Source: Escherichia phage U1G
Sequence record: NC_070872.1
Strand: one strand, 5' to 3'
DNA length: 64,000 nucleotides
Under the pieces are notes generated by a model. That model worked only from the letters and a program-made list of their open reading frames with translations, was not told the DNA's origin and did no database searches. A program made the position numbers and the translations under genes. Positions 26,195 through 26,844 of this stretch are shown here, piece after piece (the stretch's first letter is position 1; every line of letters begins with the position of its first letter).

Positions 26195-26778
26195 ATCGTG
26201 AAGGGTTCTGTTAGAATCCTTTGAGATAGGTACTCCTATCATAACCTTTCTTAACTTAATCTTTGCCGTATGGCACTGACGCTAGGGGTGGCCCCCATCC
26301 GTCAGGTAGACTATTTTAAGAATGGGTTATCACAGAAAATGTAAAGCAACATTCGGGTTAATCAATGGCCTCTCCCTATAGGGGCCATTTCTGAATCTTA
26401 GGCTATATCCCAAAGGTTAGTATCTTTAGGATAAGGCTTCAGATCCCTTATCAACTAACGCTCATGCTGAGCACAACATTAACCAATAATGTCGGATAGT
26501 ACGCTACACTATTCATCCAGCATCGAGATGTTAGGTCTTACATGTAACATAGGGTATAAAGGGAGGATTCGTCCCCTCCTCCCTATTATGACAACCTATC
26601 AATGAGTACATTAAGCTAACGTGCGGAGGTTTACACTGTAGCCGGTGTAGGTGGAGAAGACGGCAGGGTAGCTACCTGTGCTTAGTGTACTCTTTGATAG
26701 GTTGTGCCATCAAAGTCCAGACGATACCTGAGTGACTATAAAAACAGATGGAGCCAGGTGGAAACCCTGGCAATTAAT

Positions 26779-26844
26779 TCCGGTGTAGGTACTAGTGTCG
26801 TGCACGGCATGAGTGTTTTGGTTCGAGTCCAGACGCCGGAACCA
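26779..26844 (+). tRNA. tRNA-like element A (T-arm, acceptor stem, encoded CCA; body too short for a canonical tRNA)
   Basis: T-arm tttgg/ttcgagt/ccaga (26817..26833); 3' strand cgccgga + A + CCA pairs with tccggtg at 26779..26785 (7 bp, one GU); only 31 nt between, so no room for both D and anticodon arms. Confidence 0.3.

Follow-up and report, generated by a model that had tools for sequence, protein, structure and literature searches.

The stretch of the Escherichia phage U1G genome analysed here (64,000 nt of NC_070872.1, hereafter the window) comes from a Gamaleyavirus, an N4-like phage of the family Schitoviridae, and encodes the virion RNA polymerase as a 3590-aa open reading frame (ORF) at 28051-38823. 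Between gp47-like and gp48/49-like genes lies a 1.3-kb non-coding cluster of transfer RNA (tRNA) and other non-coding RNA elements, closed by a strong intrinsic terminator at 27471-27502. A first-pass annotation had flagged 204 bases of this cluster (26641-26844), in which two short motifs recur, as a duplicated or disrupted tRNA-like gene or the scar of an insertion. We consider it likely that these bases are instead parts of three separate structured-RNA elements lying end to end on the plus strand: a long hairpin, H1 (26591..26705), a 65-nt leader (26714..26778) and a 66-nt tRNA-like RNA, element A (26779..26844). The locus has matches in 80-100 N4-like phage records; for the 2 kb surrounding the flagged site, 80 phage records were returned at 80-99% identity. 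The comparisons below draw on approximately 30 related loci. Pairwise alignment with St11Ph5, Bp4, ECBP1 and UE-S5a revealed a mosaic of conserved blocks broken by insertions and deletions (indels). Relatives carry from 1 to ~5 canonical tRNAs, and the equivalent cluster of N4 encodes tRNA-Asn, -Ser, -Thr and -Pro around element A. In the window ARAGORN called no canonical tRNA or transfer-messenger RNA (tmRNA) gene, Rfam likewise reported none at the gathering score, and positions 26200-27700 had no tRNA or tmRNA-clan match in Rfam at E<=10.

H1 is formed by a 5' arm at 26591-26616 and a 3' arm at 26680-26705. An inverted-repeat search found the 26-nt arms to be 92% complementary, and the minimum free energy fold of 26585-26850 had a z-score of -4.7. 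Its core of 21 bp (26596-26616 with 26680-26700) closes off an apical cargo of 63 nt (26617-26679). In an alignment of 15 distinct arm pairs, 93% of cells were paired and 14 of the 21 pairs had compensatory changes; a U.U mismatch and a U.G wobble are both conserved. Where only one side has changed, the result is a G.U pair on the plus strand, indicating that H1 is an RNA of that strand. The first-pass annotation had drawn a 7-bp CTTTGAT/ATCAAAG hairpin here; the complementarity is present (26692-98 with 26709-15), but it competes with the covariation-supported H1 helix and is not kept in N4.

The apical cargo, by comparison with the stem, is highly variable: it ranges from 32 to 63 nt and comes in about nine unrelated versions across phages. 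In the window it is predicted to fold into two hairpins on the plus strand. The first, TTTACACTG / loop TAGC / CGGTGTAGG (26630..26651), holds the upstream copy of the flagged 11-mer (26642-26652), which is confined to one of the roughly nine cargo types and occurs in 8 of the ~30 loci. Substitutions within this cargo type track the hairpin. In ECBP1 the closing pair changes from G-C to A-U (G26638A with C26643T), turning the 11-mer into CTGGTGTAGGT; ZQ2 and PGN829.1 replace a U.G with C-G; and the equivalent in AN24P2, CCGGTGTAGAT, carries one-sided changes that keep the pairing. The second hairpin, (G)CAGG / GTAGCTA / CCTG(T) at 26663..26679, is the source of the 10-nt palindrome GGTAGCTACC that had also been singled out. 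The palindrome is indeed there (26667-76); it is simply the stem CAGG/CCTG around the loop GTAGCTA, and in ZQ2 and PGN829.1 a G-to-A change in the loop breaks it and leaves the stem intact.

The leader follows on the plus strand and is made of hairpin a (AGTC-CAGA / CGATA / (C/T)CTG-AGT-GACT, 26714-26737), an A-rich linker (26738-26752) and hairpin b (GCCAGG / TGGAAAC / CCTGGC, 26753-26771), followed by the spacer AATTAAT. In a boundary alignment of 19 distinct relatives, conservation starts exactly at AGTCCAGAC (26714) and ends at ACCAAT, and the flanks are unalignable. These borders define a conserved module of 131 nt that comprises the leader and element A. We aligned 14 distinct leader sequences, drawn from N4-like phages, 9NA, DS8, SopranoGao, e270.1 and an E. 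coli prophage; 96.9% of cells were paired and four pairs had a compensatory change. Hairpin a, for example, goes from AGUC/GACU to AGCC/GGCU, and hairpin b occurs as CCAGG/CCUGG, GCCGG/CCGGC, GUAGG/CCUAC and GCAGG/CCUGC around a conserved UGGAANC loop.

The leader extends well beyond the N4-like phages. It is found at ~85-95% identity in the virulent siphoviruses 9NA and e270.1, in Shigella phage DS8 and in Klebsiella phages such as SopranoGao, as well as in lambdoid prophages of 14 complete E. coli genomes, where it sits between a cI-like repressor and the early-left genes, and in prophage regions of eight other Enterobacterales species (loci of the motif: L038:4004-4062, L040:1501-1560, L041:1501-1565, L042, L043 and L047-L074). 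In all of these it occurs without element A, as it also does in the N4-like phages ZQ2 and pSb-1 and in two other N4-like contigs. A degenerate leader pattern gave 33 matches in bacterial genomes; eight had the full motif, all of them in Enterobacterales, and the rest were chance matches. An apparent second leader in one related locus (L006) proved to be a fuzzy-match artefact. The motif is absent from Rfam. Its loop GGUGGAA resembles the distal loop of T-box stem I, GGUGNRA, and Rfam gave no T-box match. The leader appears to be a mobile, sequence-conserved RNA module of many Enterobacterales phages. Outside the N4-like group, we also observed that it is followed by long-range helices of CACAACA/GTTGTG strands.

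Element A, on the same strand, has the acceptor and T-arm half of a tRNA. A 7-bp acceptor stem (TCCGGTG/CGCCGGA, 26779-85 with 26834-40) is combined with a T-arm (TTTGG/TTCGAGT/CCAGA, 26817-26833), discriminator A73 and an encoded CCA (26841-26844); in the place of the anticodon arm stands a 10-bp arm capped by the tetraloop TGCA (26801-04). The tRNA-like nature of the downstream unit, with its T-arm and CCA, is thus borne out. Of the features expected of a canonical tRNA, element A has the 7-bp acceptor, discriminator A, CCA and a UUCGA-type T-arm; it lacks a D arm and a 7-nt anticodon loop, and neither ARAGORN nor any Rfam model, the latter even at E<=10, detects it. After the acceptor strand it reads UAGG, so that a GG is kept after U8-A9, and there is no D stem. 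Since a closed, UGCA-capped arm replaces the anticodon arm, element A cannot decode. Among 10 distinct sequences, 98.6% of alignment cells were paired, and compensatory changes were present in the T stem and the long arm; the T stem of KP8, for instance, is GTTGG/CCAAC. Across three genera element A is ~95% identical and the leader nearly invariant, with unalignable flanks on both sides. The 66-67-nt orthologues of 26779-26844 annotated as 'tRNA-Undet' in SPSP (SPSP_tRNA4) and 'tRNA-OTHER' in KP8 are the same element, named by software calls without structure or function. The present comparison shows that element A, devoid of D stem and anticodon loop, is conserved with covariation and forms a fixed module with the 65-nt leader. 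A 16-mer scan of viral contigs for more distant homologues returned the extra loci L023-L034, which are chance matches in unrelated sequence, and a literature search on tRNA-like or tmRNA-like RNAs of N4-like phages found nothing specific. We also noted a 25-nt complementarity (80%) between an upstream non-coding segment (26457-26481) and the long-arm region of element A (26793-26817); the upstream partner persists in ZQ2, which is without element A.

H1 and the leader are separated on the plus strand by a 13-nt junction, GTTGTGCCATCAA (26701..26713), which forms a small hairpin with GATAG (26696-26700). This stem covaries, being GATAG/CTATC in ZQ2 and GATGG/CCATC in KP8. The 13-nt spacing is common to the N4-like phages SPSP, AN24P2, ZQ2 and pSb-1. 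Most relatives have 210-380 extra nt at the 26700/26714 junction; in St11Ph5, Bp4, ECBP1 and UE-S5a, 250-270 extra bases lie between ...TTTGATAG (26700) and AGTCCAGACG (26714). The relatives' cassette opens with a tag-encoding frame, ...AUAAAU GCA AAC GAU GAU GUU GUU CUG AUG GCN GCN UAA, which specifies ANDDVVLMAA. Third positions vary synonymously (GCA GCC, GCG GCG or GCT GCT; CUG or UUG), variant tags read ANDDVILMAA, ANEEAYLMVA and ANNETYLMVA, and the frame with its resume codon was present in 21 related loci. The permuted-tmRNA model of Rfam matched the tag region of relatives with 33 bits (E 4.7e-5), and the beta-proteobacterial tmRNA model aligned over the same resume codon and tag. The window itself has no match to this region and no tag-like ORF anywhere, and so carries an empty or deleted allele of the cassette site. 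The likeliest view of its layout is that of an allele, recombinant or deleted, which N4, AN24P2, ZQ2 and pSb-1 have as well.

The tmRNA-type coding domain, with resume codon GCA, is unannotated in most Gamaleyaviruses and in KP8, BaqKoxi and Shigella phage DS8 (for example Bp4, L002:1296-1470; St11Ph5, L001:1281-1360; DS8, L041:1135-1230). It shares several traits with permuted (two-piece) tmRNAs: downstream of H1, relatives have a short hairpin and then a resume/tag region (…AUAAAU GCA AAC GAU GA… GC. GC. UAA) resembling that of phage tmRNA* genes, and H1 sits where the helix enclosing the tRNA-like domain would be. Permuted tmRNAs differ in two respects, as a tag ORF is missing from the window and none of the H1 cargos is related to a tRNA-like domain. 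ARAGORN called no tmRNA in the N4-like loci, and inspection by eye did not find in them a G3.U70 tRNA-like domain with T-arm and CCA. We considered whether the conserved U.G of H1 could represent the G3.U70 acceptor in relatives; the orientation is right, but the pair is C-G in 5 of 15 sequences and there is no CCA. A blastn comparison of the relatives' tmRNA-like region with an approximate E. coli ssrA sequence gave nothing beyond GCAAACGA. A group I intron was likewise discarded as the relatives' insertion, a gathering-score Rfam scan of 15 related loci having returned tRNAs only. In IMG/VR, the resume-codon pattern had 142 matches, most with short tags such as ANDEQFLAVA, ANDDLMLMAA and ANEEMYLAVA; some of the longer reads are probably chance matches in coding sequence. 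Three IMG/VR contigs contain a canonical permuted tmRNA with a G3.U70 acceptor that ARAGORN does call (L081:7154-7563, L092:5418-5839 and L114:3485-3882); their tags are ANDERFLMAA, ANDEVFALAA and ANDESAYLMAA, and in the resume region they are similar to the N4-like element. Comparable tags, without an ARAGORN call, are present in dozens of further viral contigs of 40-50 kb.

We next turn to the repeats themselves. Both pairs exist: the 11-mer CCGGTGTAGGT occurs at 26642-26652 and 26780-26790, as had been reported, and the second motif, given as 9 nt, is one base longer, AGTCCAGACG, at 26714-26723 and 26826-26835. The downstream copies of both lie in element A, and the upstream 10-mer is the first 10 nt of the leader. 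The real window has no other collinear double repeat of this kind. When all 64 kb were dinucleotide-shuffled, a collinear pair of at least 11 and at least 9 nt within 200 nt turned up in 44 of 200 replicates; at the true lengths (at least 11 and at least 10) it arose in 11 of 300 whole-window shuffles. Shuffling of the 1.3-kb non-coding region alone produced it in 3 of 2000. The pair is therefore unusual locally and not compelling when the whole window is counted, and the statistics alone cannot decide whether the repeats exceed chance. In the window as a whole there are 38 direct repeats of at least 10 nt within 200 nt, compared with ~11 expected from shuffles, pointing to further repeat-rich spots elsewhere.

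If the two units descended from one, similarity should run through the body of the copies, and it does not. With four gap schemes, the interiors (26653-26713 and 26791-26825) scored lower than 5000 shuffles did on average. Once the motifs are included, a gapped chain alignment is equalled by only 1 of 2000 shuffles, but the local and chain signals both stem from the two motifs alone, and we rejected homology of the units, which share nothing beyond them. The upstream "unit" is a composite of H1 cargo and 3' arm, the 13-nt junction and the first leader bases. Nor are the copies inherited jointly in relatives: the 11-mer in element A is invariant, unlike the cargo copy with its patchy occurrence, and the leader is common without element A. 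In KP8, compensatory substitutions have turned the T-arm copy of the 10-mer into GTCCAACTG and the leader copy stays AGTCCAGACG, showing that the two are not co-maintained. Moreover, the leader is independent of element A, older and more widely spread, so the upstream AGTCCAGAC cannot be a remnant of the T-arm of element A. An ancient duplication, with the upstream unit as a paralogue of element A that has decayed, its middle overwritten through insertions and only its two end motifs surviving, would account for motifs that are collinear and local, for a chain alignment that beats 1999 of 2000 shuffles and for the setting in a tRNA-derived, indel-rich array. It is nevertheless improbable in view of the interiors, the KP8 sequences and the age and spread of the leader, and the upstream 11-mer belongs to a cargo in 8 of ~30 loci where it pairs in another register, over 9 bp with TTTACACTG. 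The repeats are not conserved in relatives and can be explained by chance, and the reading of two short repeats in a tRNA-derived, recombination-prone region as the mark of a duplication is not supported. The insertion-scar proposal holds for the location only. The upstream unit does span a real indel junction (26700/26714), but neither motif pair flanks the indel. A target-site duplication was dismissed on similar grounds: the H1 3' arm and leader between the copies are present in all relatives, and the indel borders do not match the repeats.

Two other explanations take the repeats or the region differently. The cargo sequence GCCGGUG-UAGGU could act as a second 5' half that invades element A and pairs with its 3' acceptor strand CGCCGG, a functional alternative pairing that we regard as highly improbable. 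Its outcome would be a conformational switch, or else a split tRNA-like domain that in relatives is joined to the tmRNA-type coding domain lying downstream of H1. The 11-mer does correspond exactly to acceptor positions 2-7 plus U8 A9 G10 G11 U12 of element A, the C-to-U change in ECBP1 would still pair as U.G, and in Bp4, St11Ph5, ECBP1 and PGN829.1 this cargo lies directly upstream of the tmRNA-like coding domain whose tRNA-like domain was not found. Yet most phages with the coding domain have other cargos that lack the 11-mer sequence, and the coding domain is missing from four that retain the cargo (the window, AN24P2, ZQ2 and pSb-1), ZQ2 and pSb-1 being without element A as well. The pairing would put a G.A mismatch at position 1, the motif is already tied up in a covariation-supported hairpin of its own, and AN24P2 has changed G11 to A. 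Alternatively, the region could be the non-functional debris of a decaying phage tRNA cluster, with the repeats as leftovers or chance. In keeping with such decay, the window has no canonical tRNA where relatives have 1 to ~5, indels are rampant, and some phages do without element A and the cassettes. We give it a low probability, since three genera share an almost unchanging leader and an element A of ~95% identity despite unalignable flanks, compensatory substitutions keep all helices, and the leader is retained in unrelated phages and prophages.

Several points weigh against three independent elements. The double collinear match is improbable locally (3 of 2000 for the non-coding region; 11 of 300 for the whole window at true lengths), and the 11-mer fits neatly onto the 5' acceptor strand and UAGGU of element A, a coincidence that may point to a genuine connection, for instance a 5' half that was copied. 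The alignments are shallow, with 10 to 15 distinct sequences of which many are close relatives; the 5' arm of H1 was chosen by best complementarity, which inflates its paired fraction somewhat; and the outer part of the long arm of element A is mismatched in KP8, L008 and L010. The literature gave no expression, processing or binding data on H1, the leader or element A.

Under the three-element reading, H1 would come first, a conserved stem whose apical cargo appears to be swapped freely among phages. The leader, a putatively mobile two-hairpin RNA module of 65 nt, would come second, and element A last, the acceptor/T-arm half of a tRNA with encoded CCA in which a closed hairpin stands for the D and anticodon arms. 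The 11-mer and the 10-mer would each have arisen by chance once in element A and once in one other element, with copies that are under different structural constraints and not maintained as pairs. The H1-leader junction would be the empty allele of a site that in most relatives holds the tmRNA-type tag-coding domain and further modules. The cluster may be transcribed as one precursor ending at the terminator at 27471-27502, with the long stems and tRNA-like ends serving as processing or stability signals of the RNase III, RNase P and RNase E types, and element A may be released as a small stable RNA. Being non-decoding, element A would then act through its acceptor/T-arm face, as a mimic of tRNA or a decoy for a tRNA-binding factor.

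The species 1 and 2 RNAs of phage T4, small, stable and co-transcribed with the phage tRNA cluster, offer a parallel. Like the elements described here, they are structured non-tRNA RNAs within such a cluster, and their tRNA-like ends would let tRNA enzymes process them. Similar in form to element A is the RNA of mycobacteriophage DS6A, which encodes little more than the tRNA-like domain of a tmRNA (Hudson, Lau & Williams 2014, PMC4131195; also PMC11915505). According to PMC4131195, a similar molecule consisting only of that domain is a strong inhibitor of tmRNA whether or not it can be charged, and may act by titrating SmpB. Element A (66 nt) and the DS6A RNA (83 nt) share an acceptor stem, T-arm, ACCA, the lack of a D stem and a closed helix at the place of the anticodon arm. 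The DS6A RNA, which served as a positive control (L077:28478-28560), has G3.U70 and matched the Rfam tmRNA model with 43.2 bits (E 6.5e-14). By contrast, element A has C3-G70, invariant in 10 distinct sequences, and U1-A72, and no tmRNA or tRNA match at E<=10. With C3-G70 and no match to a tmRNA model, we do not file it among these tmRNAs reduced to the tRNA-like domain; a decoy-type action is conceivable.

A more far-reaching proposal, which we hold to be improbable, is that H1, leader and element A are members of a tmRNA-related RNA family of Enterobacterales phages that is as yet undescribed, large and modular. Its components would be long stems whose cargos can be exchanged, a tag-coding domain, the leader and tRNA-like ends. 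The version in the window would be the one without the coding domain, and element A would serve as a tRNA-like decoy of non-alanine type (its target being, for example, SmpB, EF-Tu or a defence enzyme that attacks tRNA ends). The 11-mer would supply the 5' half of a split tRNA-like domain and could pair with the 3' half of element A. Whatever their function, the elements are of greater interest than the flagged repeats, which are ordinary. Element A looks like a non-decoding tRNA mimic that is almost unchanged over three genera of N4-like phages; the leader welded to it is common to unrelated virulent and temperate enterobacterial phages; and the tmRNA-type tag-coding domain next to the module in relatives escapes standard tools. 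If it is true that these RNAs act on host translation rescue or tRNA surveillance, they would offer a compact, testable case of RNA-based host manipulation by phages. For annotation, element A should not be labelled a pseudo-tRNA, and unannotated tmRNA-like genes are to be expected in such phages.

Other features of the locus lie around these elements. Among the proteins adjoining the cluster, Pfam identified a gp49/66-family protein and a primase domain only, and no RNA enzyme. The variable region has its left border at a G+C-rich plus-strand hairpin, GGGAGGA / loop TTCGTCCCC / TCCTCCC (26561..26583), which is followed by the conserved anchor CTATTATGA; judged by eye, relatives keep its pairing and differ in stem and loop lengths. 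At ~26589, just past this border, St11Ph5, Bp4 and ECBP1 have an extra 72-nt tRNA-like element that ARAGORN calls 'Ala-cgc'. In ZQ2, which lacks elements A and B, a gene for an HNH homing endonuclease (L016:18-515) lies just upstream of the RNA cluster and may be relevant to cassette turnover. Upstream of H1 in the window, the non-coding segment 26364-26389 forms a strong 10-bp hairpin, AATGGCCTCT / AGGGGCCATT, without a T-run after it. Starting 3 nt past element A is element B (26848-26970), a 123-nt tRNA-like RNA with a 7-bp acceptor (TACCAGT/ACTGGTA) and A-CCA. Its T-arm holds a conserved T.T mismatch, and neither ARAGORN nor Rfam calls it; KP8 and L007 have a conserved counterpart immediately after the tmRNA-like domain. 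Further on are two T-arm-like hairpins without recognisable tRNA bodies, GGGGTTCAATTCCTCC (27075-27095) and GGTGGTTCGATTCCATC (27139-27165), and at a point that the window skips (~27361) relatives encode tRNA-Ile(aat) and, farther along, an unusual 'tRNA-???'. A second long hairpin, H2 (AATTCAAAGTAGCATTGC / GCAGTGCTACTTTGAATT, 26970-27041), has arms that are 94% complementary and, like H1, an exchangeable cargo; its equivalent in N4 and AN24P2 encloses a T-arm-like GGTTCGAATCC element.

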